NCBI RefSeq assembly: GCF_964355755.1
Contig: NC_092676.1
Location: 3,325,888 to 3,389,887, forward strand
Source of the DNA: Antedon mediterranea
Taxonomy: Eukaryota; Animalia; Echinodermata
Reading direction: 5' to 3'
Length of the DNA: 64,000 nt
A model generated the notes under the pieces. It had not been told where the DNA came from. It searched no databases and worked only from the letters and a program-made list of their open reading frames with translations. Each line of letters begins with the position of its first letter. Position 1 is the first letter of the stretch. Both the position numbers and the translations under genes were made by a program. This document shows, piece by piece, positions 9,158 to 55,311 of this stretch.

Positions 9158-11053
9158 ATGGTTCATCATCAACATTGGGCATTGCTGTTTTACAAGTGCT
9201 TGATTATATTGTTTAGTATTTTTCACTGCTGTTGTGCAGCACGATCCTATAATTTTACAAAACAACCAGAATCTGTTCTTGTTGGACAAGGAATCACAGC
9301 AACATTATCATGTGAATGGGCACCAGCATTGAAGGAAACACATACGGTTGCATGGTCAGCATTCCCACGTGGTGGTACGTCTCATCTAATTGAAAGTTCA
9401 ACATCAAAATACAATCTAACAACTAAAGCAACCTTATCATATCTTTCCATTTTCAATGTTGGTTACAATGATGTAGGAAAATACAGGTGTGATATCTCGG
9501 ATGACAGTTTCAGTCTTTCTAAAGAGGCTTCTGTAGTTCTAGGAGAAATAGTGTGCAATCCAAAGAATGGCAATGATGAGATTGGAACAACGCTGACATG
9601 TTCTTTTACTTCTTCTCATCCTTCAAATAATATTGATTTACATTTGTATAAAGATGGACAATCAAATAAAACAGAAGTAAAACTACAACATAATAATATG
9701 TTAGAATCAAGGGATTTGACTGCCGAAGACTATGGAGTTCTATTTATGTGTAAAGCTACATTAGGAGGTGATGTGATAGGAACTTGTGAAACTACTCCGC
9801 TGCTGCCCATAGATGCAGAGATTGAACAATCACCACCAGGTACACTTCAGGTTGGTGATAGCTTCAACCTTACATGCTCAGCGAAAGGTAATCCTGATTA
9901 TTATGAATATGAATGGGCGTGGAATGACAAACCTGTACAATCTTCACCAAGCAAAAGACGATTTGCAATAGGTAATGTGCTTACTGTAGAGAGTGTATCA
10001 AGCAAAGCCAATGGCAAAATAGTTAATTGTACTATTAGTCGTGAAGATCGTAACAGTAGTATAGCAACCTATACAGTGAAAGTTTTAGAGCAAATGACTA
10101 CACGTTTGCAGTCGACATCTGGTACGCGTACGCGCAACTCAATTACGCGTCAACTATCAACCAACCTCCCTGATGACGAGTCCCCAAAAGTAACGACTAC
10201 ACGTTTACAGTCGACACTAGGTACACGTACGTACAAGCCAATTACCGTCAGACTATCAGAAACTAATTTCCAGGATAATGATTCTACAATTGTAATCATT
10301 GTCATCATTGGCGGAGTTGCGATAGCTCTTGTGAGTTTGATAACAGCATTTATAATTTACTTTTTAAAGAAAAGGCACAAGAAACAGTACGACAAAGAAG
10401 AGACAAAACCCGAAAATGTACCATTGGAAAAACCAGTGTACGGTAACACAGAACAAAACATTAACAGTTCTGAAATAGATAATGACCTATGTGAAAATGT
10501 GGAGACAATGTACGCAGAACCTGACATGTCAGAAAATGGTTGGCATATCAAATATAACACGCCACAGAATGCAGTAAACATTCATAAAACTGATGATTCT
10601 TTAGGTAAGTCAATGAAACCTAATGGAACGAGTGATGCTAAGCCGAGAAAAACGACAAGTGCCGAAAGTACAGATGCAATACAAGTAAAACCGATCAAGG
10701 CCCACAGTAAAGAAATTATTGAAGATTTGTATTCTAAGCCCAACAAACGGAATGCGAAAACGCTGATCGAGGCCCACAGCCAAGAGAATATTGAAGATCT
10801 GTATACTAGGCCTAATAAACCGACTGCAAGCAGACCAACCAAGGCCCACAATGTTAAAGAAAGTCTGGAAGATCTGTATTCTAAGCCCAACAAACCAACG
10901 ACAAGAACGCCAGAAATTACGCACGAAGATCCTACTAAGAAAAATGTAGAAGGCTTATCGTACGCAGAAATAGAGTTTAAAAGCGGTACGTTCCCAGCTC
11001 CTGGACCACAGGACTACGGGCTTGATTACGCAACTGTACAGATTAAGAAGTAA
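9158..11053 (+). CDS. Ig receptor copy 3, tail class B (ITIM-like)
   Basis: Intact ORF (ATG 9158) with three Ig domains and TM IVIIVIIGGVAIALVSLITAFIIYFL. Tail has VYGN, MYAEP, three EDLY(S/T)(K/R)PNK repeats, LSYAEI and C-terminal LDYATV. Confidence 0.9.
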   Translation: MVHHQHWALLFYKCLIILFSIFHCCCAARSYNFTKQPESVLVGQGITATLSCEWAPALKETHTVAWSAFPRGGTSHLIESSTSKYNLTTKATLSYLSIFNVGYNDVGKYRCDISDDSFSLSKEASVVLGEIVCNPKNGNDEIGTTLTCSFTSSHPSNNIDLHLYKDGQSNKTEVKLQHNNMLESRDLTAEDYGVLFMCKATLGGDVIGTCETTPLLPIDAEIEQSPPGTLQVGDSFNLTCSAKGNPDYYEYEWAWNDKPVQSSPSKRRFAIGNVLTVESVSSKANGKIVNCTISREDRNSSIATYTVKVLEQMTTRLQSTSGTRTRNSITRQLSTNLPDDESPKVTTTRLQSTLGTRTYKPITVRLSETNFQDNDSTIVIIVIIGGVAIALVSLITAFIIYFLKKRHKKQYDKEETKPENVPLEKPVYGNTEQNINSSEIDNDLCENVETMYAEPDMSENGWHIKYNTPQNAVNIHKTDDSLGKSMKPNGTSDAKPRKTTSAESTDAIQVKPIKAHSKEIIEDLYSKPNKRNAKTLIEAHSQENIEDLYTRPNKPTASRPTKAHNVKESLEDLYSKPNKPTTRTPEITHEDPTKKNVEGLSYAEIEFKSGTFPAPGPQDYGLDYATVQIKK

Positions 11054-12490
11054 GGTGATATTGTTACGTAACCGTTACGTATTTACCGTTTACGTTGTAA
11101 CATATTTTAATACGTTTATCATTAACACATGTTGCAGAAATCAATATTAATCAACCTTCGGTATGTGACCTTACCATTTGGTCAAATCGCTCGTGACAGT
11201 TTTATGCAATGTGTATGTAGGCCTAAGATTAAAACAGAAGATTTAAAATAACAGCCATTATCTACGTTAACGCGGATTGTTGTTGCAGAGTTGTTTCTGT
11301 AACTTTGTATACAGTTTTTCATATAATTGACATAAAGTACCATAATATTCTATGATAAATAAATACATAAATAGCCTGGATGCATTACAGCCACTATAAA
11401 TATATAATTTAATAAAAGAACACTTGTTGGTAATTGTAAATATTACAGATGTACAGTCAAATAACTCTTAGATATCATAGCTTTAAATCCGTTTACTTAA
11501 TAATAGACGTATTGTAGTTGAATTCGGTTGCTTATCTATTTTGGTATTTAATTTAAAATAATCAATCTTGTATTATGTCGGCCTAATTAACCTTGCGCAT
11601 ATAAATAAGTTACTTAATATATTTTTTTATTTTAAAGAAACCGATGTAGGCCTACAGTATACCGTATTTTAATGAATACTACTTAATATATTTTCTATTT
11701 TAAAGAAACTGATGTAAACCTATACCGTTGTATTTTAATGAATACTAGCAGAACAAGAACATCTCGAAAATAGACTTTCAGTTATTATCATTATTATAAT
11801 TGATTTATATTGATTAGATAGCTAATAATATTGATTATGCAATCTAAGATATTGATTATGTATTTGATAGTGATTGTTATTGTTTTTTTTTCAAGAGCAA
11901 ACCACACCAAAATAGATTTTCATTTTTATTACCATTATCATAATTGATTTATATTGATTAGATAGCTTAATATTATTGATTATGAAATTAAAGTTATTGA
12001 TTATGTATTTGATATTGATTGTTATTGGGTTTTCAAATGAAAGCCAAATGTGTAAGTTATTTTTCGTTCTTGTATGAGGAAGCGAACTGAACAATTATTT
12101 TGGAAATGAGGAGATTGAAACAACACTGACGAGATCAAGGAAGTACAGGAAACAATTGGCAAGAGTTATGAGTTATATAAACACTAACATTGATGTACGA
12201 GGTTAGAGATAAGTGGTTACATTAATTCCCTTTCTGTCGATGGTACTTTGTACAATTCTCCCCCAATTTTCAACAAGTCCACACGGACTTCCGGAAAAAA
12301 ATAATTCAACATGATTCTGCATGATCAAACCAACAAGAAAACAGGGCCATATACATGGCTGCAGTCACGTGGTCAAGTTAGTGTTTGCCGACCAACCGAC
12401 CGACATAATGAGCGGAAGAAAGTAATTGAAAGTTCAAGATTAGTTAGAGATTGATGGTTACTTTCCTGTGGTAATTCGTTCAACTCTTAA

Positions 12491-13643: not shown

Positions 13644-14243
13644 TAATGCTGGTTGGACCAAAAATAGATCGGAAATGAAAAATCGGAACATAAAGGCTTG
13701 CTTCTAATAGTGTTCTCTATGTCTTGTCGTCACTTGGAGGGTAAACATATTATTATGTACACTTCTCTCCCAGGCATTCTTTTTTTTGCTAAATCTTCTA
13801 TTTACAAAATCAATTGTATATTAATTAAATACTTAGATTTGACACAAAAATGAAACACCAGCTTGTAGGCTGCAGGAATACTGGAAAGCTCTCTCTAAAA
13901 GTTCATCTTTATTACCATAAAAAAGGATTTTTTTCTCACTACAAACTATATAAAAGAGTAGGTGATTGTTTGCAGTTTTTTATTTTCACTGGAGTTTCAT
14001 GATTTGAGGTATGGTTTTTGCAAATTTTATAACTAAAAGCTAGGCTGCAAAGTTGAAAATCAAGCATACCTATTTCTGAAGAACAAAGGAATAAAGCCAG
14101 TATTGTAACCTACTTGAAAAGTGTTATGTAAGAAGTTCTGGGCTGGACAAACTAAGCCTTTGTTTAAATTCGCATCCTGTTTATATTGAACTGACTCATA
14201 GGCACAAACAAGCCCACTGCCCGTTTTAAACTTGACTCTTACA

Positions 14244-15641
14244 ATGGCAAATCTCATATCTAATAGCCTGGTGTGTCCAGCTAATCGGACATTTGACAAT
14301 GACGATGAAGAATCAATTTTGAAGGAATTCAGGGATTTAGAGCTATCTATCTTAAGTATGCCTTCTTATTTAACAACACCCTCGGCTTCCACACCAATTA
14401 AGCGATTTACTAATAATCCCAGAACATTTGATGCTGCTACGATTACTTCTTCAGTTGAGATTCGTGAAGTTTCTACACAATCAATTGCAACAAGAACAAC
14501 CAATATAGTTACCCAAACACCCGAGCACTGGGATCTGACACCCTCCTTAAAAAACAAAGTGAAAAGTAAGGATGACACAATAAATGATCTACGGAGACAA
14601 ATACACGATCTGAAAACTGTTCACGCTAACTTTGCCCAACTTTCGACATCTTTTAAGGAACTAAGTGAGAGAAATGAACACCTTGAGGCACAAATTACTA
14701 GCCTACGATCAGAGCTTGATGTAAAACACAACACATTTTATCAGCCTATTCATAACTGTTGCCAGGAAATAAGTCTGAATGGTAATGATCACGAGATCCA
14801 AACTAGTAACCATTTTGTTCGACTGGCAGATGAGCTCCCCACTTTACCTGAGCCGTTAATTCCTGAATCTGATCAAGCCATCCAAAACTCAACATACAAC
14901 GTCCAAAACAATGATAATGCATCTCACACTGTGAATACAACAAATTTGATAATCGGAGATTCCATGTTGAAACTAATTAAAACAAGAGGTCTAAGTGATA
15001 CATCAGTCAGGACAAAGCGAGGCTTTACTGTTAGTCAACTTTACAATGCTGTAACACATATGAATCTGGAAAATGTTACTAACATAATAATTCATGCTGG
15101 AACAAATGACTGTAGTCGAGAAGATTTTAACATTAGCAAACTTCACAAAGACTTTCTTCAAATAACAACATATTTGCAACAAAGGATATCTGGAAAGGTG
15201 CTCGTCTCGGGAATCTGTCCTCGTCTTGACAATACAAATTTTAACAGACAAATTGCTGAAGCAAATGATATGCTCCAAACGGTTTTTGGCCATATGTACA
15301 TTGACCATACCAACTATTTCACAGATGCTCACGGTGTACATTCAAATTACTTTACAAGACATGGCCTACACCTCAACCAGAAAGGTACATCAGTCCTACT
15401 AAGAAGTATTAATAGAGCAGTGCAGGTAATACGTACACCAGCGAGACAATGAAACCCAGAAGGCAAACAACGATACTTATCTGTTTCATCCTTCAACCAG
15501 GAAGCTCTGAATCCCTGCTTCAACTGTGGTGAGAATGGACATGTGCAGAGGATATGTCGTCATAAAGCACCGATTACATGCTGGAAATGTAACTCTGTAG
15601 GAGATAAGGCTAAGTTTTGCCAAGCATTTTATGATTACTAG
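14244..15641 (+). pseudogene. LINE ORF1: coiled coil, SGNH esterase and two CCHC knuckles, with one in-frame TGA at 15450
   Basis: SGNH blocks LIIGDSM, HAGTND and RHGLHLNQKG. Reading in frame past the TGA gives CFNCGENGHVQRIC and CWKCNSVGDKAKFC, ending at TAG 15639-15641. Confidence 0.8.
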
Positions 15642-15674
15642 GAAATAGGCAATGAGGGTTTAGCCGTAAATTCT

Positions 15675-16845
15675 ATGATTAATGACAATGAATTAGAACA
15701 AAATCCCCATGACGAGGTGGACACTCAACAAACTTATATAAATGATATTATACCACCTGGAGTTGCCTCAAATTTAACGTATACGATCAATTCAAATAAA
15801 AATGAAACAATTAACTATCAACATAACTGTTCGCTAAATGAACATAATAATTTAACTGAAAATTGTAAAGTATTTTTAAATAATGGTCTAAGTATCCTAG
15901 GATTGAATATAGTTTCTCTACCAAGCAAATTTGATGATCTAATCAACAACAATTCTATTGATATCATAGCACTCAATGAAACACGTTTAGATAATGTAAT
16001 TAAAGATGAATCGATACACATTGATGGCTATGATATTTATAGAAATGACAGAAATAGGGAAGGGGGAGGGGTTGCAGTTTATGTAAATAGAGGAGGATGT
16101 TTTACTTGTAAACTAAGAAATGATTTCATGAAAATGGAGCTTGAGATAGTACTAATCGAACTTTGTAAACCAAAAACTAAACCAATCATTTTAATAGCAT
16201 GGTACCGCCCACAAAACTCAAAAATTCAACTTTTAGATATTTTTGAACAAATTTTAGAAGAAAACGAATGTCTAAACAAAGAAATAATAATAATAGGAGA
16301 TGTCAATTGTGACACACTTTCACAAAACCCTACTTGCTATACACAAAAATTAATGGATATAACTAATAACCATTTTCTAACACAAATTATAACTGAACCG
16401 ACAAGGATAACAAACCAAAGTAAAACTCTGATTGGTCATTTTTATACATCCTTTCCAAACAGAATTTCTTCCTCGGGTGTCCTTAACACAGGAATTAGTG
16501 ATTATTCAGCTATTTACGCTGTCATTGGTAAAGAAGAAAAACCAAAACATAACCATAAATATAAAACAAAAAGGAACTATAATAACCTTGATGAGGAAAA
16601 ATTACAAATTGATATGTTAAATGTAAATTGGCATGAAATAACTTCATATACAAATGTGAATGACGCTCTGAAGTTTTTTGAAGACAAGTTTTTACAAATT
16701 GTTAATAAACATGTACCTTTAAAGAAAAAACGGGTTCGAAATAAAGATAGCCCATGGCTCACAAAAAATGTAATATTACAAATGCGAAAACGTGACTCAA
16801 TGAAAAAAAGAGCAAGTAAAGAAAATTGTCCTCAATTATGGAACG
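15675..16845 (+). pseudogene. LINE ORF2, 5' part (apurinic endonuclease)
   Basis: Motifs IIALNETRL, RNDRNREGGGVAVY, WYRP, IIIGDVN, TEPTRIT, ISDYSAI and SPWLT. Ends at the Gypsy target site GAACG. Confidence 0.88.
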
Positions 16846-19132
16846 TGTAGTATATGCACGCGCACATATATATATGCGTACTGCGCATATGCTCTGACGA
16901 GTTTAGCCTACAAAACGTTCTATACAAAGATACTATAGCGCCACGAAGTGGCGCAAGATAGGGAACTCCTATCTCTTATACACTGCGCATGAGTGAAATT
17001 CCATGGGCAGCCATTCCGGCAAGCAAGTTACGCGATCACATACCCCGGAAGTGTATAATAAACCATTGAACCACATCCACGTGTGACGTGTTATTGTTTG
17101 TTCGGGAAGTTTTCTCGTGTTGTATTGGGTAAATTGTAGTGGTAAGTTTTTAGAATATATATTTTTTTGTTAGTAAACATTAACAAAATTATTAAATTGT
17201 TGTTTAAATTTAGTTCAGGCAGGCGTTTCTGCGCAATCCGATCTAGGCCTAGGGCCTAGATAGTAGTATGCCTAGTAGGCATATTTAATGCCGAATACTA
17301 GGCCTAGGCCTAGTTTAGTTAGTATGATGATTAATAAAAAAAAGTATGGGAGGATGAATGATATTGATTGGCGTCTTGATAGATGGATCAAACAAGGCTT
17401 GGATGGATGGAAGATTAAGAAAAAAACTGAAGCTGTTCGGGAATTAGGAGTTTTTAATAAAAATGTACAAGACAATATAGCGTTTTATTAATAATAACAT
17501 TAACAGAAATAATTAAATGTAATGAAATAAAAAATCGTGAGGATGTTATTGTTTGTTTTTTTTTTATTTAATAAATTTAAATTATAAATTTGATCCTCAT
17601 ATTTATTTTGTTCTTCATCTTTATTTGAAAAATATTTAGTTAATTAATGTAAACATTTTTGAATACTTACAATATTAATAAATAGTAGGCTATTGACTTT
17701 TGTTTTGAATTTAAAAATGTATAGTATTTTAAAATACTATAATATTGTAATCAAATGATTATGTAACAGTTCGAAAAGTGACCAAATAATTTAATGATAT
17801 ATTTTTCCCTATTTCAGAAAGATGTCTGTCATCATACTGTAAAATTGAGAAGATAGATGATTGAGTGCAAAGTGGTATTTTACACAAGAATTAAATACAA
17901 AGGCCAATAGTAATAATAGTTTATATTTTTGATTCTTGAAAAGGAGCAGTATCCTATGGGATTACAAATAAAATCACTATTTTCACACACCTCATACTTT
18001 AAAGTGAAAGGAAATAACCAGAATTCAGTTATTATCAGTACTGTTGTTTAGGCCTATTGGCTTCTTTTTAATACAAGAAATCAAAATAATAGAATTTTCC
18101 TTGTATTTAAGAAGGCTAAAACCATACATTCGTAATTTATTTATTGAGTGTATTTAATTATTCCACCATTATTTATTAATATTGTATAAAGCGAGATTTT
18201 TCAGTATTTTTATTGCATTTTAATCCTGTCTGTAATATTGAAAGTTGAGCTAATAAAAGTGGGTTGAAAAGAACAAATTATGATTATGAATTTTTAAAAT
18301 TAATATTTAATACTTTTACTTTTTTGAAATTAAAAAAAATGTAACAATTGTTTTTGTATCTAGTAATGTATGTACAGTATACTACAGTTGTGGCAGATCG
18401 TAGTAAAATTCCCCTTGCAATGAAATAACTTTGTAGGCCTGAAGCACACAAAATAGAAAGAGAGGGTCCGAACAGGGGAAAGAACATCCCTCTGCCCATA
18501 AATTTTTTTTTTTTTAATTAAAAAGACAGTTTTGGACAATATATTTGGCAATTATTACAATTCATCTCCAAAAAATGCTTCTCTCGCACATAAACTAAGC
18601 CATCATCCCAGCCTAGGCCAAAGGCGGCCGACCTTGGGCGTGAAGTGCGTAGCATCGCGCTGCGCGCCGCGACACTATTTATAACTATGCCTCAACCGAC
18701 TGCCTACAAAATTCGTCCCCCATACAGTCAGTGTTTATTCTGTAGCCGTTTGAGGTTGGACAGTGATATACGCATATGTAAGTGTAATATCAAATGGAGT
18801 AAATTTATATAATCGAATTTTATATAGATGTTCTTTCATTTTGACGCGAAAGATAAAATAAAGTCGTACTGTTTATCGCGTAGATGTAAATCCTATTTGT
18901 TTACATTGATTTGGTGGCGTGCCGCATTGCCTACTGGGTAATCCGCTTGCCGGAATGGCTGCCCATGGAATTATCATTTTTCGAGCGTCAGTTCCATATC
19001 TTGCGCCACTACGTGGCGCTATACGATCTTTGGTTCTATACTATTGTTCATTACTAGTTGGTTTCATTAAATACGTTCATTATTATACTCATCTCAACGT
19101 ACTTATTAATTTGTCTACGACGATACACGACA
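16846..19132 (+). repeat. 5' LTR, split (16846-16924 and 19033-19132) by a DNA transposon
   Basis: After removing 16925-19032 and one TSD copy, it matches the 3' LTR apart from a small ~3-nt indel (cattactag versus catgactactag). Confidence 0.92.
16925..19032. mobile_element. Non-autonomous DNA transposon with 8-bp TSD (P-element or hAT-like)
   Basis: ~43-bp imperfect TIRs caaagatactatagcgccacgaagtggcgcaagatagggaact and agttccatatcttgcgccactacgtggcgctatacgatctttg. A second inverted block aattccatgggcagccattccggcaagc lies at ~16997 and ~18945. TSD GTTCTATA at 16917-16924 and 19033-19040. No transposase ORF. Confidence 0.9.
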
Positions 19133-19133
19133 C

Positions 19134-19146: not shown

Positions 19147-19307
19147 ACAGGCACATTTACATAGAGAGAAACGGAAGTATAATAATATTATAAAACTAGG
19201 CCTAGGCTAGCAGTTTTTGATTTTCCAACAACGGCAACCGTAACCAAGGAACCGCACAGGCTAATAACGATTCTGAGCGCCCTGAACGTACAGAGCGAAG
19301 CGCGGTA

Positions 19308-24460: not shown

Positions 24461-24464
24461 CACC

Positions 24465-25699: not shown

Positions 25700-25873
25700 T
25701 GTAGTATATGCACGCGCACATATATATATGCGTACTGCGCATATGCTCTGACGAGTTTAGCCTACAAAACGTTCTATACTATTGTTCATGACTACTAGTT
25801 GGTTTCATTAAATACGTTCATTATTATACTCATCTCAACGTACTTATTAATTTGTCTACGACGATACACGACA
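25700..25873 (+). repeat. 3' LTR (174 bp)
   Basis: tgtagtatatgcacg ... gatacacgaca, followed by TSD GAACG. Confidence 0.95.
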
Positions 25874-25878
25874 GAACG

Positions 25879-26801: not shown

Positions 26802-27104
26802 AAATATACTTGAAACTCTATATTTTTTCATGAAATCTTTTTTTTTTTTTTTTTTTTTTTGTACTGTAATTGATAACTTGTGTAATAGTATAAATAGTTT
26901 TGTAGTAAGTAACGGCCTTTTGAAAAACACCAATTTGGTGATTCAAGTGTTGCATCCGTTTTTAAATAAAGTTGTTATTATTATTATAGGCTAGGTCACT
27001 GCGTATTGTATATTGTTACATTATTTCTATCTATGTTCAGTATTATATACTTTCTTATTTACATACCACCTGTCTGGTATATAAGTACTCTAGGCGTTGT
27101 TTTC

Positions 27105-27825: not shown

Positions 27826-29525
27826 ATGGCTCATTCTCAATATTGGACATTGCTGTTCTTCAAGTTTCTGATTATATTTCATATATCTCACTGTTGTCGT
27901 GCACAGTACTACAATTTTACAGAACATCCACAATCGGTTCTCGTGTGACGCTATCGTGTCAATGGACACCAGCATTGAATAACAACCATCTCGTAACATG
28001 GAAATACGATCGTGTTAATAGTCCTAAACGAATTGAAATTTCAGATACAAAATACGCATTAATGAACGAAGCAACATCTTCAAGCCTTTCCATTTCTAAT
28101 GTTGGCTCTGGTGACGTAGGCAACTACATTTGTGAGATCTTCGAATGTGATTCATACAACAGTGTCTCATCTTCTACATTTGCTTCTCTAGTATTAGGAG
28201 AATTGATATGTAATCCGGAGAATATTGTTGATATAGGAACAACGCTGATATGCTCCTTCACCTCTTCTGATAATTCATATATTATTAATTTACTATGGTA
28301 TAACAACGGAAAACAAATAACTTCGGGACAACAACAAAACAATGATTTAGAATCAACGGCTATGACTGCCGAAGACGAAGGAGGTGTATTTACTTGTAAA
28401 GCCACCATCGGATTTCAAAGTCAAGCGACAGGAACTTGTGAAACTACTCCACTAGTATTTCCAATAGATGCAGAGATTCAACAATCACCACCAGGTCCAC
28501 TTCAGGTTGGTGATAGCTTTAATCTTACCTGCGTAGGGAAAGGTAATCCAGAAAATTATAATTACGAATGGACGTGGAATAACAACCCAGTAGAATCTAT
28601 GACAGATAGTCGATTTGCAATTGGCAATATGGTTATTGTGAATACTGTATCAGGCAGTGACAATGGCAAAATGGTTTCTTGTACTATTAGTAGTGGTGGT
28701 TACAGAAGTATAGCGAGCTATACAATAAACATTTTGGATCAGACGTCGAGTACAACTACAAGTATGTCGACACCAGATAGGCCTACACGTACGCAAAAAC
28801 CAATTACGGCGGTCAGACTCACCATACCTGATGACCCGGATGACATTTCAACAACAGTAATGACTACACGTTTAAAGTCGACACTAGATACACGTACGCA
28901 AAAACCAATTACGGTCAGACTCACAACACATAATGTTCCGGATGACATTTCAACAGCAGCAATGACTACACCAGGTACACGTTTGCAAAAACCAATTACA
29001 CATCAACTCACAACACATAAAGTCTCGGAAGACGTTTCCGCAACAGTAGACCTAATGAATACACGTTTAAACACAACACCTGTTACTGTAACGCGTTCTA
29101 TTACAGAAATCCTAACGGTTGTAATTATCGTAGTTGCAATTTTACTCGTCGTTTCTTTGATAATAATAATAAGCCTATGTGTTTATTTGCAAAAAAGAAA
29201 AAAGAAAAACACAACTCCTTCAAATCGACTGTCAAATAATCTTGAGCACGTTTACTATGACATTACGTCATCTAGCGCACACGTGACCTCGACAGCCAGT
29301 AACACTAAGTATGATTATGTCATACACCCGTTCACACGAAATACGGAAGAATCCACTCCTGAGTACCTTGAATTGGACGATGGTTTCCAAGATGGCGCAC
29401 CAAAATCAGCAAGTAATACAGCCGCTGATTACGATGATGTTGCATCGGAACAAACAGATACTAATAACAAAGAGTACAAATACGAAAACGGTATGCTGCG
29501 GGATAAAGGTATCAGAGAGACATAA
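27826..29525 (+). pseudogene. Ig receptor copy 4, frameshifted near the start of the V domain
   Basis: ATG 27826 reads MAHSQYWTLLFFKFLIIFHISHCCRAQYYNFTEHPQSVLV*. A deletion at ~27945 shifts the frame; the rest (3 Ig, repeated stalk, TM, tail with VYYDI, YDYV, EYLEL, DYDDV, KYEN) is open in ORF 27804-29525. Confidence 0.85.
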
Positions 29526-32374: not shown

Positions 32375-32377
32375 TAA

Positions 32378-33937: not shown

Positions 33938-35816
33938 ATGGCTCATCATCAATATTGTACATTGCTGTTGTACAAGTACCTGGTTATATTGTATAGTATA
34001 TTTCACTGTTGTTGTGCACAATCCTATACTTTTACAGAACATCCACAATCGGTTCTTGTTGCAGAAGGACAAACAGCAAATATATCGTGTGAATGGACAC
34101 CTAAATTGAATGAAACCCATCATGTTGCATGGAGATACTATCCTTTTAGTACAAGAACGGATCAAATAATTGAACGTTCAACGTCAAAATACATTTTCAG
34201 AAAAGGTACAACATTTTCAAATCTTTCCATTTTGAATGTTGATCCTAATGATGTAGGACACTACCGGTGTCGTATCTCCAAAGGTGATGTTGTATACATT
34301 TTTTCTGAATTTACTTATGTAGTGATAGGAGAGTTAACGTGTAGTCCAGAATATGATAATGGTGACATAGGAACAACGATGACATGTACTTATACTTCAT
34401 CTGATCCTGTATATATTATTGATTTACTATGGTATAAAGAGGGAAATGAAATTACTTCAGCAGCACAACGAAGTAATATCAAAGAATCAAGGACTTTGAC
34501 TAGTGAAGACGATGGAGCTGTATTTACTTGTAAAGCTATCCTCGGTTATCAAGTGATAGGAACTTGTGAAACTACTCCTCTAATATTGACTATAGATGCA
34601 GAGATTGAACAATCACCACCAGGTCCACTTCAGGCTGGGGATAGGTTTACCCTTACCTGTTCAGGGAAAGGTAATCCTGATTATTATGAATGGACGTGGA
34701 ATGGCAAACTTATAGGATCGTCGACAGATAAAAGGCGATTTGCAATAGGTAATGTGCTTACTGCGACGAGAGTATCAAGCAGTGCCAATGGCAGAATAGT
34801 TACTTGTACTATTAGCCGTAGTGGTCGTACCAGCAGTACAGCGAGGTTTACATTAAACGTGCTAGAGAACATTTCCAGTAGGCCTACTACTACACATTTT
34901 CAAACAACACCAACGCAACAGGTCGTTACAGACAAACTACTACCAACTACACGCTTACACACTACACGTTTACAGTCGACACGTACGCAACAAGTCGTTA
35001 CAGACAAACTACTGCCAACTACACGCTTACGCACTACACGTTTACAGTCGACACGTACGCAACAAGTCGTTAATGACAAACTACTACCAACTACACGCTT
35101 ACACACTACACGTTTACAGTCGACACGTACGCAACAAGTCGTTACAGACAAACTACTGCCAACTACACGCTTACCCACTACACGTTTACAATCGACACGT
35201 ACGCAACAAGTCGTTACAAACAAACTACTACCAACTACACGCATACACACTACACGTTTACACACTACACGTTTGCAGTCGACACGTACGCAACCATTCA
35301 TTAAAGACCAACTCTCAACTAATATCTCATCGGTTGACGAGCCCCCAACACTAATGGTTGTTATTAGTGTACTCGCAATTCTACTCGTAGTTTCTGTAAT
35401 AACAACGATATACATGTATTTGCAAAAAAAAAAACGTATCTAGAGACAACATAATTCCTTTAAATAGACCACCGAATAATATTGAACACAATTACGATTA
35501 CATTGTGTCTTCAGACACACAGATCAACACGACAGGCAAAGACACACACACGTATGATTATGCCATATATCCGTGTACACGAATCACAGAGAACATCAGT
35601 GCTGAATACATTGAAGTAGAAGACAGTTCCCATGAGGGCCCACAAAAACCAGAACAAAATATGACCGCAGTCGAGAACGATGATGTTTCCTTACAACCAA
35701 CGGATATTTGCAGCAAAGAGGCCATGTACGAAAATGGTAAATTGCGTATCAAAGGCATAGCAACTTCTGACAAGGTGACAATTAAGTACGAAAATATTAA
35801 AACATCTACGCGTTAG
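33938..35816 (+). pseudogene. Ig receptor copy 5 with an expanded mucin-like stalk and a +1 frameshift in a poly-A run after the TM
   Basis: ORF 33929-35443 has 3 Ig domains, stalk repeats and TM. A11 at 35424-35434 replaces the 10-nt A6-G-A3 of paralogs; tail class A continues to TAG at 35816. Confidence 0.8.
34913..35292 (+). repeat. Coding minisatellite, 72-bp unit (TQQVVTDKLLPTTRLHTTRLQSTR), about 5 copies
   Basis: Units start at 34913, 34985, 35057, 35129 and 35201. Copy 1 has a single unit. Confidence 0.92.
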
Positions 35817-36894
35817 AGAAGATCAGATGAGATAACTAAGATGACGTCACCTAGTTGTGCATGAGCTACTAATGATACAGACGTGTACGAAAATGTTAAA
35901 TTGTCACCGAGATTAAGAAGAGTTGGAATAAACATTTCATATAATCGCGAAGATGACGTCACCAAGGTGCATGTGAGTACAAACGACGTATACGAAAATG
36001 CATCGGTACGCACAAAAGCAGCGAAGTGTTCAGAAATAGAAGAAGAATAACAGAACCAAACGTACAGAATATTCACACAAAAACCAACGATGAAAAGTGC
36101 ACTAACGCATATTATCATATAGACTTGTTTATGAAGTGTTCAATACCTAAATTAGAGGTTTATACCAGGTATGATATATTTAGTATTAATGTTTTTATTA
36201 GTGAAAATGATAACTTTTAACATTTGCAAACTACTGTCCCCAACACGTACAGGGGTGTGACCTAAAAGTATTGTAAGACTAGTATGGGCCATGATACTTC
36301 CATGGTAAGAGAAATAGAAAAGTAGGCTAAATATATACGTTGAATTATTATAGCAGAGTATTAAAATATTTTAAATATTAAATAATTTTGTTTAAGGAAG
36401 TAAATCAAAAAATATTATATTATAAATAATCAACTCTGAGATTAACATTAACCAGGAAAGGGAAGGAAGGATATTAATAGGCATGTGTTTTGTAACTTTT
36501 AAAGGTTACTTTATTATTACTTGTATTAATTTTTAATGTAACCGAGTAAATTATGTAATTTATTGTTTTATGACATACAATACAGGAAATAAATTAAATT
36601 TGAAAAACAATTTTACTACAATAATTTTAGACTAGTTCAGACTTATGTTTTTATTTTACAGAGAATAAATAAATAGTATCAGATATCACAAATGTGTGAA
36701 GAAATACATTAAAAATATTATTTTATTCTCTCAGCTTGAGTGTACTACTTACAGTACGCTCATGTAAATATATATTTAATTGAATATGTATAAGTAATTG
36801 TTTCTGTAATTGATTATTATAAGAGAGCAGACAAATTAAACTTAATTTAAAGTTAATGTTTTCCAAATGTTATTGTACTTGTTTGTTGATTAAG

Positions 36895-37313
36895 GAACAA
36901 ATGAATGGAAGGGCACCAGTTGAGATCAACGTTAACGAGAATAAGAAAGAAAGTTGTAACCAAAAAAAAAATGAATATGACTGTGTAAAATCAGCAGACA
37001 ATCAAAACGATAAAATGACTGAAACAGACAGTGAAAATGAGTATGATTATGTGGAAACATCAAACATAGGCTCCATAGTAAAAGAAGGCACTGCAGAATA
37101 TATTGAGGGTGTTGATGACAACACTGATGCTGATTCCTTGACTGCCCTACTATAAACAGAAACTAATAGGGCTACTGTGGCTGAGTACAATGATGCTTCA
37201 ATACCACTAAACTAATTTCAATAAATACTAGAAAAATGATAAAGGTATCTGGACTTCGACGTATACGAAAACGCATCTGTACGCACAAAACCACTGAAGT
37301 CTGCAAGGAAATA
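36895..37313 (+). pseudogene. Orphan cytoplasmic-tail segment (EYDCV, EYDYV, EYIEG, EYND, VYEN)
   Basis: Homologous to the tail of copy 7 (50200-51183) and to 62257-62703. No ectodomain directly upstream; in-frame stops present. Confidence 0.7.
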
Positions 37314-37944
37314 GAAGAAGCAAAACAGAACGAAACGTAAGATCAAAAACAACAATGAAAACTGCACCAAACAATACATTACATTAAATACCTCTTTAAA
37401 AATATAAATATCTGCCATTTCAGTTTTCCAGGTATGATCTATTAAATTTGTTAAGTGAAATCTTTATCTTTCACTATTTCCAAAATACTGTTCCTATCCC
37501 GTAGATGAGTCTGACATATTTTCAGATACAAAAAAAAGCAATAATGACTAAATTATACGTTGAAATGTACAGTAATTAATTGGTCTGTTGTTTAAGAAAG
37601 TAAATTGAAATAAATTAGAGAGATTATTCAGTTATTTACACGTTACAAGTTTGTAATTTTGTGAATATGCATTTAATAAATAAATATAATCAGGTACTAC
37701 ACACGTTGGAAAAAAAGATATCTAATTCTTTGATAATTTTTTTTAAAGATAGAAAACAACTTTAACTTAATAAAGTTAATGAAGGAAAAACATTAAAAGT
37801 GAAACCATTAATTTGTTTTGTTATTGTTTTAACTCTAGATTTGACTTGACTTTCGGTTCAATGCTCAGTATAATGTTGCATTCACACGGAGACGGCGCCG
37901 TTCAATTCTTAATAGAATGTATCTATTATTTAACAAAAACTCAA

Positions 37945-38135: not shown

Positions 38136-38212
38136 GATATAAGAAGTTTTATAACTCGTGGACAACAATATCTAAATGCAAACTAAAAATAAAACCTTAA
38201 GAACGAATTTAT

Positions 38213-40815: not shown

Positions 40816-42259
40816 ATGGCTCATCATCATTGCTTGTTGTGCCTGATTGTATTGTATAGTATATTTTACGACTGTTTTGCTCGAATTTATATTTTCACAG
40901 AAGATCCAAAATTGGTTCTTATTGCAAAAGGAAACACAGCAAGGCTATCGTGTGCATGGACACCAGAATTGTATGAACTGCATAACTTTGAATGGATATT
41001 ATTCCCTCTGAATGGTGGTGAGCCTCAATCAATTAGAATGTCAAATTCAAAATACAATCTAACAAATGACGCAACATCTTCGAATCTTTCCATTTCCAAT
41101 GTTGATTTCCATAACGCGGGAATATACAGGTGTGATATCACCGGAATAAATGAATACAGTTTTTCTAATGAGGCTTCTGTAGTGATAGGAGAAATAACGT
41201 GCAATCCAGAGAATGATAATGGTGAAATAGGAACAACAGTGACATGTTCTTATCCTCCTTCTTATCCTTCAAATGATATTGATTTACGATGGTATAAAAA
41301 CGGAAATATAGTAATATCAGACACACAAGTCAAACACGTTTTAGAATCAAGAGCTTTGACTGCTGAAGACGATGGAGCTGTATTTACTTGTAAAGCTTTT
41401 ATCTGAAATCAAGTGATAGGAACTTGTCAAACTACTTGTAAAGCTTCAATCGGACCAAAACGTCATGTGATCGGAACTTGTGAGACTACTCCGCTAGTAT
41501 TGAATATAGATGCAGAGATTGAACAATCACCGCCTGGTCCACTTCAGGTTGGTGATAGCTTTACCCTTACCTGCTCAGTGAAAGGTAATCCTGATTATTA
41601 TAAATATGAATGGACGTGGAATGACAAACCTGTAGGATCGTCACCAAATGAAAGAAGATTTGCAATAGTGAGTGTGCTTATTGTGAAGGATGTAACAAGC
41701 AGTGACAATGGCAAAATAGTTACTAGTTATAATAGTTACTACTAATAGGTACTATTAGTCGTAGTGGTCGTGACACTAGCACAGCGAGCTATACAATAAA
41801 CGTGCTTGAGAATTTTTTGGGTAGGCCTACAACTACACAATTGCAAACAACACCAGGTAGACGTACGCAACAAGTCGTTACAAACCAACTATCAGAAACT
41901 AATATCTCTTCGGGTGACGAGCCCCCAACACTAAAGGTTGTTATTAGTGTACTTGCAATTTTACTCGTAGTTTCTGTAATATTTATAATATACACGTATT
42001 TGCAAAAAAGAAACGTATCTAGGGACAACATAATTCCTTTAAATCGACCATCGAATAATATTCAACACAATTACGATTATGTTGCGTCTTCAGACCCACA
42101 GATCACCACGACAGACAATGACACACACACGTATGATTATGCCATATTATCCGTGTACACGCATCGCAAAAAAACCCAGTTCTGAATACATTGAAGTAGA
42201 AGACAGTTCCCATGAGGGCCCACAAAAACCAGAACAGAATATGACCGCATTCGAGAACG
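40816..42259 (+). pseudogene. Ig receptor copy 6 (5' part), multiply disrupted
   Basis: ATG 40816; in-frame TGA at 41404; duplicated loop segment 41384-41490; micro-duplication frameshift at ~41725-41750; breaks at 42259 within tail class A. Confidence 0.88.
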
Positions 42260-42790
42260 TTATTTGATTCTTTTTCATAAAAGTGCTAATTCTAAGATGT
42301 GGTGTTCAGAATAAATGTTGGGAGTTAAAATACAAGGCGGGTGCAAAAGATAAATATTTGTAATCTTAGTTCTTGGGTCTTAGCTTTCGTGATCTTAGGT
42401 CTTAGGGTGTCTTAGCTTTCGTGGTCTTAGGTTTCGTGACACCCCAATTTTGATTTACCTTTATGTTACAATTAAATGGCAAATTGTTTTAAAATTGTTT
42501 TTTTTTTCATACAGCTGATAAACAATAGCCATGCGGGGAAAGTGAATAGCGGGGAAAGTGAATAGCATGTACTGTAGTAATTATTATATATCAAGAATTA
42601 TATTTATAAAAATCATAACTATATAATATAGTCAGGGTCCTCGTGTATTTCCGTAGGATTTTAATGCCCAAAGTGAGATTTTACTTGATTTCACTTTATT
42701 ATGGTGCTAGGATACCAAAAATGTTAGGTAACAAATTTTCACGATCCCGTAACCATGGTAACAGCCCCAAATTCAAAATGGCGACCAAAT

Positions 42791-43405: not shown

Positions 43406-43912
43406 AATAAACATGAACTTTATGTATATAAGCATTTATCTATTTGAGCATGTATGGTCAATTGTTTGTGGTAGGGATTAAAAAAAAAGTTTATACATAT
43501 TATCATCATTCGAATATTTAATTTCTAATCACATATTTAGTTTTTATATATTTTATAAATAGTATATACTTTATAGTGTAAGCACATTTATCTATGTAAA
43601 CAACTTTGGACAATAGTAAAAATTACAGCAGAAATTCATTCATTCATCTACTTCACTAAAATGACGTAGCCAAATTGATTCTTCCTGCACTTTTCCTGAA
43701 ATGTTAATTGCTATACTTTTTACATTTTGGAGCTCCAAGAAACTGGAGCTCCAAAATTGGATTATAACATCTTTAATTACATCAGTACTATGCATTTATT
43801 GTGTCAGCATCCTTGTTGCCATTAAGACAGTCAAGGAGTGAGAGTGGTTGATTCTTCAACTTTTGTACCTTTAATGTTTGTTCTTGAAACACTTTCATAT
43901 AATGGTTTGTTT

Positions 43913-44121
43913 GTACACGTTTGTATCATTATTAGGTCATGCACAACTAGGTGACGTCATCTTAGTTATCTCATCTCATCTTCTCTAACGCGTAGATGTT
44001 TTAATATTTTCGTACTTAATTGTCACCTTGTCAGAAGTTGCTATGCCTTTGATACGCAATTTACCATTTTCGAACGTGGCCTCTTTGCTGGAAATACCCG
44101 TTGGTTGTAAGGACACATCAT
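43913..44121 (-). pseudogene. Inverted 3' end of Ig receptor copy 6
   Basis: Minus strand reads DDVSLQPTGISSKEATFENGKLRIKGIATSDKVTIKYENIKTSTR* and joins seamlessly to 42259 (gagaacg|atgatgtgtcc), as in copy 9. Confidence 0.88.
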
Positions 44122-44760
44122 CTTGTATTTTGACTCCAAATTTGTTAACTAACTTTATCCTGAATACCACACTTTAAAATTAGGACTTATAAGTACTTTC
44201 AGAAGGAGAAACACATAAAAACAAATAAATAAATCCTTTGAATTGATGATTTTACAGACGTGTTTCTTTGTATACTGTAACTCCTCCCATGCTGAATGTT
44301 TTTGTTTCTATGGAGCGCCAAAAGAGCAACAATAATAGTACAAGTATAAAAACAGAAAGAAAACGAAACAAAAAAACTTATTATCATGATTTTTAAATTA
44401 AAATTTATTTGCGAGTATTTATTTCTTCGTACTAGCATGATTATACTATTATCATTACAATTTTAATTTTACATTGTTCCGTCTACACTGTAGATCGACT
44501 CCACAGAGTTTTCAGCCCTCTATATAATTTTTGCTCTTTTGACGTTCCATAGAAACCAAAACATTGAACATGGGGTAGGCCTCTGTACTGTTAGGCTAGT
44601 CATGCGAAATTCGCAAACAGTATGTGTGCGATCGAGAAAAACGTCTGTAAAATCATCAATTTAAAAATGTATTTGTTACTTTTTATTTGATTCTTTTTCA
44701 TAAAAGTGCTAATTCTAAGATGTGGTGTTCAGAATAAATGTTGGGAGTTAAAATACAAGG
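44122..44760. mobile_element. Fold-back element with long imperfect inverted arms
   Basis: cttgtattttgactcc..ctgaataccaca..aattgatgattttacagacg pairs with cgtctgtaaaatcatcaatt..tgtggtgttcag..ggagttaaaatacaag. Its right end (44683-44867) is duplicated at 42260-42444. Confidence 0.7.
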
Positions 44761-44957
44761 CGGGTGCAAAAGATAAATATTTGTAATCTTAGTTCTTGGG
44801 TCTTAGCTTTCGTGATCTTAGGTCTTAGGGTGTCTTAGCTTTCGTGGTCTTAGGTTTCGTGACACCCATCAAAATTGGACCGAAATCATTCTAATACCAT
44901 TTGTACGGTACTGAACAAATAAATAAAACACTGTCAATTTGTTCTGAACGTCCCACA

Positions 44958-45000
44958 GTCATGTCATGTCATGCCATGTCATGTCCTGTCATGTCATGTC
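44958..45000. repeat. (GTCAT)n microsatellite
   Basis: gtcatgtcatgtcatgccatgtcatgtcctgtcatgtcatgtc. Confidence 0.8.
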
Positions 45001-48883: not shown

Positions 48884-51183
48884 ATGGCTCATCATCAACA
48901 TTGTACATTGCTGATCGTTATATTGTATACAATTTTTTTACTGCTGTTGTGCACAAACCTATACTTTTACAAAACATCCACAATCGGTTCTCGTTACGGA
49001 AGGGCAAACAGCAACGTTGTCGTGTGAATGGACACCAGCACCAACACATGACGTTTTATGGTCTTTTTTCCCTCGTGTTGGTACGCCTAAATTAATTGAA
49101 AGTTTAACATTAAAATACAATGTAATAAGTAAAGCAACATCTTCAAATCTTTCCATTTTTAATGTTTATTCTGATGACGTAGGAAGATACAGATGTGATA
49201 TCTTGGATGGTGATTCATACAGTCTTTCTGAACTTGCTTCTGTTTAGTGCTAGCAGAAATAACGTGCAATCCAGAGAATGGCAATGGTGAGATAGGAACA
49301 ACGCTGAAATGTTCTTATATTTTGTCTCATCCGTTAGATAATGTTGATTTATTATGGTACAGATATGGAAGTGTAATTGAATCACATCACAAACAAATGC
49401 ATGTTTTAGAATCAAGGGTTTTGACTGCCGAAGACGATGGAGCTGTATTTACTTGTAAAGCCACAATGGGATCTCAAGTGATAGGAACTTGTGAAACTAC
49501 TCCGCTAATATTGAACATAGATGCAGAGATTGAACAATCACCACCAGGTCCACTTCAGGTTGGTGATAGCTTTAACCTCACGTGCTTTGGGAAAGGTAGT
49601 CCTGATCCTGGTAATTATATTTATGAATGGATATGGAACAACATTTCTGTAGATTCTTTGAAAAGTAATTGGCGATTTGCAATAAGCAATGTATTTACTG
49701 TGAAGAGTGCGACAACCAAAGACAATGGTGAAATAGTTACTTGTACTGTCAGTCGTGATGGACGTGACAGCAGTACAGCGAGCTATATAATAATAAAACA
49801 TTTCGGAGATTCCATTGAGTATATTAACTACACCTTTGCAATATTCTGTTACAGACCTATTACCATCAACCAATGTCTCGGACGACGAACCTCCAAAACT
49901 AACGATTGTCGTTGGTGTCGTAGCTCTTGTGATTTTGATAACAGCAATTATAATATACTTTTTACACAGAAGGCGCAAGAGCAATCAGTACGTCAACAAA
50001 ACAAAACCAATGACCCTACAATTACAGCCAAATTGTGGTCACATGGAACAACAAATTACATTTGTTGACAACAGAAATATACAAACTTCAGCAAGCAAGA
50101 GTCTAACACACAAGATACCAGTATGCATGAAAACCCTACCGTGTCAGCACAGGACACAATAAAAGAAAAGTATTATATGGTATCGGTAGACATTCACAAC
50201 CATGGAATCACTACAACATGCAACAGAAATGAATGTGATAGTGTGGATTTAACAACAGACAAGCACAATACTAAAATGGCAGCTGAAAGAGACAGCCAAA
50301 ATGACTGTGATTATGTGGAGTCAGCAACAGACAATCACAACATTGAAACCATCACATCAGGTAGCGTAAATGAGTATGATTATGTGGAAACATCATGCAA
50401 TGGAGCTAGAGTGAAGACTATCGGAAAAAACATTGAACTTGCCGATGACAACAGCAATTGTCCCAAGAGAAAGCCACTGAAAACAGAGAATAATAAGCCT
50501 ACAACGACTAAGTACAATAATGATTCAATGTCACAAGCAGATGTTTCCAGAAATGCCAGAGCTAATGATGAATTGTCCAAAAACAGTAAATTGCATCACC
50601 TCAAAGATATCACAAGCATGGCAACATCTGACGACCAGAACATGTATGAAAATGTTAAAATGCCGCGATTGAGGAAAGATAAAGTACTGCTTACAGTTAC
50701 AGGCAGTAGAGAAGATGACGTCACCACGGTACACGACGTGAATACAAAACCCAATACAAACGTGTACGAAAATTTATTTATTTTTTATTTATTTTCCACA
50801 TTTATTTAGTCATCAATTACAGTACATCATAATTACAGTACAACTGAAAACAGGGATCCTGCATAAAAAAGCTGTAGCTTCGTTTTTTTGTAGGACCCTT
50901 TGCTTCGATGTCAAAAACATGTGTTTCCAGAAAAAACAGAACCAACGATAAAGAGGCTGAGTATGAAAACAGTAAACTGCATCTTAAAGATATCACAAGC
51001 CTGACAACATCTGACGACCAGAACATGTACGAAAATGTGAAACGTGTGTTACGGAGACTGAGAAAAGATGGAGTAACCGTCATGGACAACCGCGAGGATG
51101 ACGTCACCCTAGTGCACGCGAATACACATGTGTACAAAAATGCACCAATACGAACAAAAGCAGTGAAGTCTGCTAAGAAATAA
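48884..51183 (+). pseudogene. Ig receptor copy 7 with several frameshifts and a long Tyr-repeat tail
   Basis: ATG 48884; shifts at ~48935 (T7), ~49245, ~49800 and ~50120. Pieces encode the V domain, domains 2-3, TM IVVGVVALVILITAIIIYFL, and tail motifs EYDYV, MYENV, VYEN and EYEN. Confidence 0.88.
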
Positions 51184-53601: not shown

Positions 53602-55311
53602 ATGACTCATCATCATTGCTTGCTGTGCCTGATTGTATTGTGTAGTATATTTTACGAATGTTTTGCACAAACATATGTCTTCACAGAAGACCCGAAATCG
53701 GTTCTTGTTGCTGAAGGAAACCCAACAATTCTATCGTGCGCATGGAGGCCAGAATTGGATGAACGAAATACCTTTCAATGGTCATTTTTCCCTCAGAATG
53801 GTGGTGAGCCTCAATCAATTAGAATGTCAAATTCAAAATACAATCTAACAACCGACGCAACATCTTCGAATATTTTCATTTCCAATGTTGATTCTAATTA
53901 CGCGGGAAAATACAGGTGTGATATCAGACACGGCGATACAGACATTCTTTCTAAACTGGCTACTGTAGTGCTAGGAGAAATAACGTGCAATCCAGAATAT
54001 GATAATGGTGAAATAGGAACAACGATGACATGTTCTTATACTTCTTCTTATCTTTCAAATTTGATTTATTTACAATGGTATAAATCAGAAGAACAAGTAC
54101 AATTAGACACCCAAGACAAACACGTTATAGAATCAATATTTTTGACTGCAGAAGACGATAGAGCTGTATTTACTTGTAAAGCTATACTCGAAAATCAAGT
54201 GATAGGAACTTGTGAAACTACTCCGCTAATACTGACTATAGATGCAGAGATTGAACAATCACCACCAGGTCCACTTCAGGTTGGAGATAGCTTTAACCTT
54301 ACCTGCTCAGGGAAAGGTAATCCTGATTATTATAATTATACATGGATGTGGAATGACAAACATGTAGGATCGTCGCCAGATAAAAAAAGATTTGCAATAG
54401 GTAATGTGCTTACTATGACAAGTGTATCAAGCAGTGCTAACGGCAAAACAGTTACTTGTACTATTAGTCGTGATGGTCGTAACAGCAGTACAGTGAGCTA
54501 TACAATAAATGTTGCAGAAAATACGCAAAGTACAACTGCACGTTCACGCACAACACAAGGTAGGCCTACTGGTACAGACCTACTATCAGCAACAACATTA
54601 TTATCAACCAAACTATCAGCAAACAATGTCACGTACGACGAGCCACAAACATTGATTATTGTCATTGGCGTAGTTGCAACAGTTATTGTGATTTTGATAA
54701 CAGCAATTGTAATTTACATTTTACATAAAAGGCGTAAGAAACAGGATGGCAACAAAACAAAACCCGAAAGTGTACCATTGAAAGAACCAATGTATGGTAA
54801 CACTGATCAAGACATTAACACTTCTGAAAAATCATGCGTACAAAATGGCCCTCGGAGTGAAAAGTTGACAACAGATTTTACAGTATATGATGAGCCTACG
54901 ATTTCAAGTTCAAATACTCAGTTGGATACTATGTACGCCGAACCTGATACGTTAGTAACTGGTCACGATGCTAGGTATGACACGCCACGGAACGCTATAA
55001 GTCTTGATAATGTCGATACAGCGAATACTGATGAAGCGAATGATGCAAAGCCAAGAAAAACAAAAAGCAGAGAAAGTATAGATGCAATGTACGCGAAACC
55101 GAACAAATCTCGCAGTACAGAAAGTATTGATGATCTGTATGCTACGCCCAACAAACCGACTGCAAGAACGCCAGTGATTACCCGTGAAGATCCTACTAAG
55201 AAAAACATAGAAGGTCTAACATACGCAGATATAGAGTTTAAAGGCGGTACGTTTCCAAACCCTGAACCACAGGACTACGGACTTGATTACGCAACCGTAC
55301 AGATTAAGTAG
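53602..55311 (+). CDS. Ig receptor copy 8, tail class B (ITIM-like)
   Basis: Intact 569-aa ORF with 3 Ig domains and TM LIIVIGVVATVIVILITAIVIYIL. Tail motifs MYGN, VYDEP, MYAEP, RYDTP, MYAKPNK, LYATPNK, LTYADI and LDYATV. Confidence 0.92.
   Translation: MTHHHCLLCLIVLCSIFYECFAQTYVFTEDPKSVLVAEGNPTILSCAWRPELDERNTFQWSFFPQNGGEPQSIRMSNSKYNLTTDATSSNIFISNVDSNYAGKYRCDIRHGDTDILSKLATVVLGEITCNPEYDNGEIGTTMTCSYTSSYLSNLIYLQWYKSEEQVQLDTQDKHVIESIFLTAEDDRAVFTCKAILENQVIGTCETTPLILTIDAEIEQSPPGPLQVGDSFNLTCSGKGNPDYYNYTWMWNDKHVGSSPDKKRFAIGNVLTMTSVSSSANGKTVTCTISRDGRNSSTVSYTINVAENTQSTTARSRTTQGRPTGTDLLSATTLLSTKLSANNVTYDEPQTLIIVIGVVATVIVILITAIVIYILHKRRKKQDGNKTKPESVPLKEPMYGNTDQDINTSEKSCVQNGPRSEKLTTDFTVYDEPTISSSNTQLDTMYAEPDTLVTGHDARYDTPRNAISLDNVDTANTDEANDAKPRKTKSRESIDAMYAKPNKSRSTESIDDLYATPNKPTARTPVITREDPTKKNIEGLTYADIEFKGGTFPNPEPQDYGLDYATVQIK

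Follow-up and report, generated by a model that had tools for sequence, protein, structure and literature searches.

Clusters of immunoglobulin (Ig) receptors with tyrosine motifs in their tails, among them immunoreceptor tyrosine-based inhibitory and activation motifs (ITIMs and ITAMs), have been described in a cnidarian, Hydractinia (bioRxiv 2022.03.04.482883), and in a tunicate, Botryllus (PMC12065747). In mammals and Xenopus, CEACAM1 and CEACAM3 are clustered Ig receptors in which an ITIM member stands beside one that signals through its own tail; CEACAM3 is reported to bind Nck and Vav (PMC3308951), and alignment of the binding domains by gene conversion is described as a mark of the paired CEACAMs (PMC5112662). 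Here we describe a comparable array in 64,000 nt of Antedon mediterranea DNA (GCF_964355755.1, contig NC_092676.1, positions 3,325,888 to 3,389,887; hereafter the window, numbered from its first base). The array comprises nine receptor gene copies on the same (+) strand, each laid out as one reading frame for a signal peptide, three Ig domains, a Thr-rich stalk, a membrane helix and a tail. The tails form two classes, A (copies 1, 2, 4, 5, 6, 7 and 9) and B (copies 3 and 8), and what is new in this analysis is that the outer domains do not track tail class. We hold it to be evenly balanced whether this tandem array, with its two unrelated tyrosine tails and exchanged outer domains, is a paired receptor system, with class B damping and class A driving responses to shared or similar ligands.

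Domain trees were built from all nine copies after columns with more than two gaps had been removed. In the domain 1 tree, copy 8 grouped with copy 6 (bootstrap 100) and copy 3 with copy 2 (bootstrap 94); in the DNA of the helix and juxtamembrane segment, copies 3, 7 and 8 clustered together (bootstrap 100). The approximately unbiased test rejected a clade of copies 3 and 8 for domain 1 (p = 2.8e-6) and for the ectodomain as a whole (p = 2.4e-4); for helix plus juxtamembrane segment it rejected the pairs 6/8 and 2/3 (p = 7e-47). For the quartet joining 8 with 6 and 3 with 2, informative sites numbered 37:0:2 in the signal peptide plus domain 1 and flipped to 5:23:2 at the helix. In copy 6 itself, a class A helix and tail are fused to a 5' flank, signal peptide and first domain that resemble those of copy 8, and copies 8 and 6 are 93-94% identical across the 300 bases upstream of the start, so that the promoter side is common to both. 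These results indicated that first domains have been swapped between the tail classes, 6 with 8 and 2 with 3. Synonymous distances were 0.57-0.72 in the tails versus 0.25-0.34 in the Ig domains, and therefore the outer parts were homogenised later and the tails are older. By analogy with the CEACAMs, whose binding domains are likewise aligned, the exchange of outer domains is the gene-conversion signature of paired receptors.

The ratio of nonsynonymous to synonymous substitution (dN/dS) in domain 1 was 1.07 (0.82-1.42), which for the whole domain is not different from 1. On its predicted binding face, the loop face, the proportion of nonsynonymous differences (pN) was 0.39 versus a synonymous proportion (pS) of 0.28 (0.37 versus 0.31 among intact copies); this predicted face changes fast.

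The preliminary description of this DNA had contrasted an ITIM-like tail class with a class bearing YxN- and YDxV-type adaptor sites. Two classes do exist: the Ig domains of the nine copies are 62-90% identical in DNA, whereas the tails fall into two groups that cannot be aligned with one another. All seven class A tails align mutually, copy 7 weakly (expectation value 2e-6 to copy 1), and alignment of class A with class B was unconvincing (best expectation value 0.008 over 33 residues in the nine-sequence set). As judged by these alignments, class A is one homologous family. Within it, copy 7 has a distant A-type distal tail but a membrane and juxtamembrane segment of class B type (bootstrap 100). 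Nor do the motifs separate the classes cleanly: both class B tails carry a YxN (YGN), class A copies 5 and 9 have a wide-consensus ITIM (IKYENI), and copy 6 has a strict one (SEYIEV).

The class B endings given earlier, LSYAEI or LTYADI followed by LDYATV, were confirmed, as was the upstream (L/M)Yx(K/R/T)PNK, of which copy 3 has three and copy 8 two. The terminal sites lie 22 residues apart, with tyrosine codons at 10961 (LSYAEIEF) and 11027 (LDYATV) in copy 3 and at 55222 (LTYADIEF) and 55288 (LDYATV) in copy 8. Under the ITIM consensus that had been quoted, only LDYATV matches strictly; LSYAEI and LTYADI match if Ile is allowed at +3, so that each tail has one strict and one wide candidate ITIM. 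Two wide-consensus ITIMs per tail exceed shuffled sequences (p = 0.034 and 0.019), as do five YxxP motifs per tail (p = 0.0016 and 0.0004). Reported hallmarks of SHP2 N-SH2 ligands are Ile, Leu or Val at -2, a hydrophobic residue at +3 and Phe at +5 (PMC10369915), and the first terminal site carries them in both class B tails and in none of the seven class A tails (shuffle frequency 0.5-1%). The predicted arrangement in both class B tails, LxYAxIxF plus LDYATV 22 residues apart, thus resembles the two-tyrosine docking layout of SHP2, of the BTAM type (bisphosphoryl tyrosine-based activation motif).

All eight aligned class B tyrosines are kept, versus 100 of 164 other columns (p = 0.022), dN/dS of the tail is 0.44 (0.29-0.65), and the terminal part has a pN of 0.10 versus a pS of 0.30. 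Contigs of four public sequencing runs were placed on 55040-55330, with alleles and paralogues mixed and each change scored singly; the 32 listed differences include 16 silent ones, where 26% would be expected (p = 0.003), and leave the 10 class B motif residues untouched. The class B tail is under purifying selection. Its motifs make it likely that class B is inhibitory.

The same motifs fit a rather unlikely alternative, in which both classes belong to adhesion or recognition receptors and both tails are positive scaffolds. Class B would resemble a membrane-bound Gab1 or Cas, with YxxP repeats for Crk-type adaptors and a two-tyrosine site that turns SHP2 on and promotes ERK, class A would form a Src/Grb2 scaffold, and their outputs would differ but not in sign. 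Consistent with it are the five YxxP and one YxN of each class B tail, the activation of SHP2 by two adjacent phosphotyrosines, for which Gab1 is the cited case (PMC12905495), the need for SHP2 in ERK activation (PMC6823243), and the Cas proteins, described as combining YxxP repeats with a phosphorylated DYDYV (PMC3706375) that the class A YDYV resembles. As a functional analogy, the YxxP repeats, two-tyrosine SHP2 site, YDYV and YxN of Gab1, Cas and transmembrane adaptors also occur in the array; unlike the array these proteins have no Ig ectodomain, and homology is not claimed. The ectodomain of copy 8 was modelled as three Ig sandwiches (mean predicted local distance difference test score 86). 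Searches of solved structures and folds with this model returned generic Ig matches only, and the fold is equally near nectin-like or neural adhesion molecules and CD22 or SIRP, as a scaffold on an adhesion receptor would allow. However, fast birth and death of copies, a variable domain 1 and exchange between classes suit pathogen or self-recognition better than housekeeping adhesion, and terminal tandem sites on vertebrate Ig receptors are usually inhibitory.

For class A, an alignment that took in copy 7 and two orphan tails left YDY as the sole invariant tyrosine motif, its second occurrence being present in 7/7 rows; EY-I/L-E was found in 5/7 rows, the first YEN in 3/6 and the second in 4/5. 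Multiple YEN sites arise from tandem repeats of one unit. The motifs attributed to the class in the preliminary description do occur, but no class A copy carries them all: copy 1 has a single YEN and lacks YDYV, the YDNV tyrosine is missing from copies 5 and 9, and copy 2 has no YDYV, EYIEV or YDNV. The Nck consensus used here, Y-D/E-D/E-V (PMC3308951), matches one of the nine tails, in the broken copy 4. Tyrosine density in the tails, 4-9% compared with 5.8% in six-frame translation, is unremarkable. For YEN and YDxV, the p = 0.0002 obtained from pooled shuffles was discounted because the motifs were picked post hoc and the copies are related. When the class A helix and tail served as query for the atlas, Grb2/Nck-type membrane adaptors (SCIMP, LIME1, GAPT and the poxvirus A36 family) came back at scores of 0.77-0.85, below the 0.9 line, and these serve as a lead only.

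It is improbable, in our estimate, that class B is simply the functional ancestral receptor and class A mostly a by-product of unequal crossing-over, at best decoys or uptake receptors using YxxI/V endocytic signals, with no selected pairing. Of the seven class A copies, five (2, 4, 5, 6 and 7) are broken by frameshifts or a stop, versus neither class B copy, numbers too small for a test; the intact copies are 1 and 9 in class A and 3 and 8 in class B. The tails of the broken copies therefore cannot be made from a single frame. From copy 2 a secreted ectodomain (3886-4941) and from copy 5 a tailless membrane form (33938-35443) are possible products, and possible decoys if expressed. YxxI/V motifs in class A tails number 19 against 9.9 expected, and the class A YDY/YEN plan was not conspicuous among 87 library matches with a helix and tail; both observations suit this reading. 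On the other side, two class A genes are intact and the tails are under purifying selection, weaker than in class B (dN/dS 0.61, 0.46-0.78, from five copies of which three are broken). In distant class A pairs, whose other residues are 24-35% identical, 4-6 of 5-7 tyrosines also align, compared with 1.4-2.6 in shuffles that gauge aligner bias, which suggests conservation, with the caveat that the shuffle control also erases homology.

If the array is a paired receptor system, ligand clustering would lead a Src-family kinase to phosphorylate the tails, and the two terminal class B sites would engage the paired SH2 domains of an SHP phosphatase and so open it. YDYV is known to dock the Src SH2 domain, and YxxP and YxN are known binding sites for Crk and Grb2, respectively. 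Crk- or Nck-type adaptors may bind the class B YxxP repeats, and class A may recruit Src-type SH2 domains to YDY and Grb2 to YEN, signalling with neither an ITAM nor a charged-helix adaptor. Within the array, recombination would keep shuffling binding domains between tails, with class A copies arising and vanishing faster.

The inference of paired inhibitory and activating receptors was thus reinforced in part, by ligand-side domains common to both classes and by class B motifs conserved under purifying selection, but several observations weigh against it. Within the window, the class A partners of both class B genes (copies 6 and 2) are broken, and the intact class A genes 1 and 9 pair with no class B gene (quartet 9:10:9). 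At the DNA level the paired first domains reach only 81-82% identity, which makes ligand sharing uncertain; broken copies shift dN/dS towards 1; and unequal crossing-over yields hybrid genes in any tandem array without a need for selection. Inhibition by class B stays at likely because five YxxP and a tandem SHP2 site also fit activating scaffolds. The absence of change at the class B motif residues would be expected by chance at 0.19. Activation by class A is the weakest step, because there is no ITAM or hemITAM in any of the nine tails, YEN and YDxV are variable, most copies are broken, and the tyrosines are not significantly better kept: the conservation check that succeeded for class B found no significant excess over other residues among close class A copies (p = 0.11-0.34; one of 10 pairs at p = 0.05). 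No copy has a charged residue mid-membrane, but copy 6, contrary to the preliminary statement that no membrane segment carries a charge, has a Lys at the outer edge of the helix. One snail protein shares the class-B-like plan, and the class B tail alone, used as query in a word-indexed protein search, found no homologue; the likeness across phyla is therefore at motif level and may be convergent.

With KIR, LILR, SIRP and CEACAM the array has in common clustered paralogues with differing tails, a tandem-ITIM member (from sequence only) and domain exchange across classes, and at the level of gene evolution it works like these classical paired families. An ITAM, hemITAM or mid-membrane charge was found in 0/9 copies, and because this activating feature is absent the array is not filed with them. 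Unlike in the array, the activating CEACAM tail is ITAM-like; the likeness of the ectodomains is generic to Ig domains, and opposing function is demonstrated for CEACAM whereas the array is known from its sequence. CEACAM genes are multi-exon. The intact copies here (882-60494) have no intron in the coding region from signal peptide to tail, which is unusual for multi-Ig receptors and suggests a retrocopied ancestor. Stalk length differs widely among the copies; that of copy 5 (34889-35313) is enlarged by a 72-base tandem repeat.

The Botryllus FcoR are likewise invertebrate multigene Ig receptors, described as 520-610 aa in length, and their long tails bear ITIMs or different tyrosine motifs, of which some have been compared with LAT/SLP-76 sites (PMC12065747). 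They differ from the array in their sushi domain and hemITAMs, in being paired with a fester partner and in having spliced tails, features that the array did not show; against the IgV-sushi-C2-C2 layout of FcoR, Pfam gave no sushi match, the model has three Ig domains and no hemITAM was present. The Hydractinia Alr genes likewise encode clustered single-pass Ig receptors, come with pseudogenes, and have tails that diverge more than the ectodomains (bioRxiv 2022.03.04.482883). In keeping with this broad likeness and with the variable first domain, the array could be a self/non-self locus whose first domains, being polymorphic, recognise their own type on other cells, with the tails signalling whether the two match. 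We regard this as very improbable: the array has no ITAM, the host is likely a solitary animal, and the contigs mix allelic polymorphism with paralogy. Alr have ITAM tails, one exon per domain and a mostly Fn3-like fold, whereas each copy here is one frame with three Ig domains and a Thr-rich stalk; neither an exon per domain, an Fn3-like spacer nor ITAM members were found in the array. Activation through a receptor's own tail is not new, because it is known in Hydractinia Alr, Botryllus FcoR and CEACAM3.

From the best 150 library matches, 20 records were picked by layout or tail motif (10 echinoderm, 2 hemichordate, 3 fish, 1 snail and 4 others), a composition that points to a likely echinoderm host. 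Three-Ig receptors of Diadema, Acanthaster, Asterias, Amphiura, Antedon, Anneissia, Saccoglossus and Glandiceps share the layout of the array; identity is 20-26%, and nine Cys/Trp/Tyr positions are invariant. They bear automatic names only, and no class A counterpart was found among them. The class-B-like tail plan occurs in Ig receptors of sea urchin, sea star, brittle star and hemichordate, and several of the three-Ig receptors have YAKPxK and LxYADL-type tail sites. Amphiura and Saccoglossus records have NVEGLx ahead of the terminal site, as copy 3 does, and crinoid records had the most similar DLYA-P motifs among those examined, by itself a weak hint of the host. Ten of the best 150 library matches contain [LV]xYA[DE][LI] (6 named echinoderm or hemichordate, 1 snail and 3 others); in several of them a YAKPxK lies upstream and there is a second terminal site. 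Six echinoderm and hemichordate proteins (P0035, P0037, P0063, P0075, P0040 and P0074), automatically named peroxidasin-, DCC- or cell-adhesion-like, combine YAKPxK with a tandem LxYADL-type tail, and this pattern suggests an unannotated family of putative SHP-docking receptors.

A word-indexed protein search found no close relative of copy 3, and an alignment query gave three generic Ig proteins; a metagenome scan yielded 287 pattern matches, of which none was confirmed. A sea star egg transcriptome paper lists Grb2, Syk, Csk, Abl and Src-family kinases, and the words SHP, Nck and Crk are absent from its main text (PMC11593052). In a literature search no tyrosine-motif Ig receptor cluster was found in echinoderms, most subscription papers and the 2006 sea urchin immune papers being outside its reach. 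The 2006 sea urchin genome work reportedly mentions Ig receptors with tyrosine motifs. The accessible text of a 2025 review of invertebrate Ig superfamily proteins has no passage on such receptors in echinoderms (PMC11999971).

The window is animal DNA of 33% G+C with long interspersed nuclear element (LINE) and Gypsy-type elements, and its receptor copies and fragments are listed in Table 1. Read-through of the copy 5 and copy 9 stops was ruled out, as more stops follow downstream. The frame shift of copy 5 gives either the tailless product or is an assembly error; one copy 7 frameshift is spanned by an exact contig of a public sequencing run (49712-50063), which may come from the source sample. 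A run presumed to be RNA also had coverage outside the coding parts. An exact 185-base duplication (42260-42444 and 44683-44867) lies beside the inversion that truncates copy 6. Each of the class A copies 2, 5 and 9 is followed, after 1.1-1.7 kb, by a copy-7-type tail remnant; these are either leftovers of a duplicated block or alternative last exons; stops are present in two of the three orphan tails, and decayed YEN repeats run on beyond the copy 9 stop. Two extra 5' gene fragments with signal peptide and domain 1 start are located at 33049-33216 and 63761-63875. Between copies 3 and 4, a Gypsy-type retroelement (19221-25456) has a protease region, reverse transcriptase, RNase H and integrase zinc finger, and is interrupted by about 2 kb ahead of the integrase core. 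LINE-type fragments (14202-16850, 25851-26802 and 38193-39490) include an endonuclease frame and a frame like open reading frame 1 (ORF1) with a GDSL esterase match. An imperfect palindrome of about 410 bases (31969-32378) is possibly a small inverted-repeat element.

Table 1 Receptor gene copies and related fragments in the window.
Feature	Position	Strand	Remarks
Copy 1, intact	882..2456	+	Helix about 2010-2078; class A tail with YDYI, YDYA, EYIEV, YDNV, YEN
Copy 2, class A tail, stalk frameshift	3886..5582	+	First frame stops at 4941; domain 1 nearest copy 3
Orphan remnant, decayed, copy-7-type class A tail	6850..6960	+	Has NEYDYVET
Copy 3, intact, class B tail about 10358-11053	9158..11053	+	YGN, five YxxP, LSYAEIEF, LDYATV
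Copy 4, class A tail	27826..29525	+	Sole exact Nck-type YDDV; 16-base deletion just past signal peptide
Copy 5, class A	33938..35816	+	Frame shift in A11 run (35423-35433) directly behind membrane helix
Orphan copy-7-type class A tail fragment with stops	36890..37314	+	
Copy 6, broken	40816..42259	+	Stop in domain 2, more frameshifts, truncated at 42259
Rest of copy 6 tail, inverted	43910..44122	-	
Copy 7, several frameshifts	48884..50809	+	Class-B-type helix/juxtamembrane, distant class A distal tail (YDYV, YENV, YENL)
Tandem repeat of copy 7 YEN-bearing tail unit	50878..51183	+	
Copy 8, intact, class B tail about 54721-55311	53602..55311	+	YGN, five YxxP, LTYADIEF, LDYATV
Copy 9, intact	58995..60494	+	Class A tail with YDYV, YDYA, EYIEV, two YEN
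Orphan class A tail fragment	62200..62703	+	Last 121 codons open; class A motif order, about 35% identity elsewhere
Start of tenth copy: signal peptide, first strand	63761..63875	+	Then unrelated sequence

In its fullest form the paired-receptor interpretation would be an independent echinoderm origin of the logic of KIR and CEACAM, which we consider possible but doubtful: an intron-free pair would join an old SHP-recruiting tail to a lineage-specific, ITAM-free activating tail (YDY plus YEN), with promoters and binding domains traded by recombination, secreted and tailless decoys made by frameshift, and no adaptor chains. Because each gene is one reading frame, tail-swap tests are simple. If the two signs are opposite, paired receptors with domain exchange arose again outside the chordates, and activation free of ITAMs is possible. 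Should the sign prove wrong, the class B tail would still point to an as yet unannotated group of candidate SHP-docking Ig receptors in echinoderms and hemichordates.

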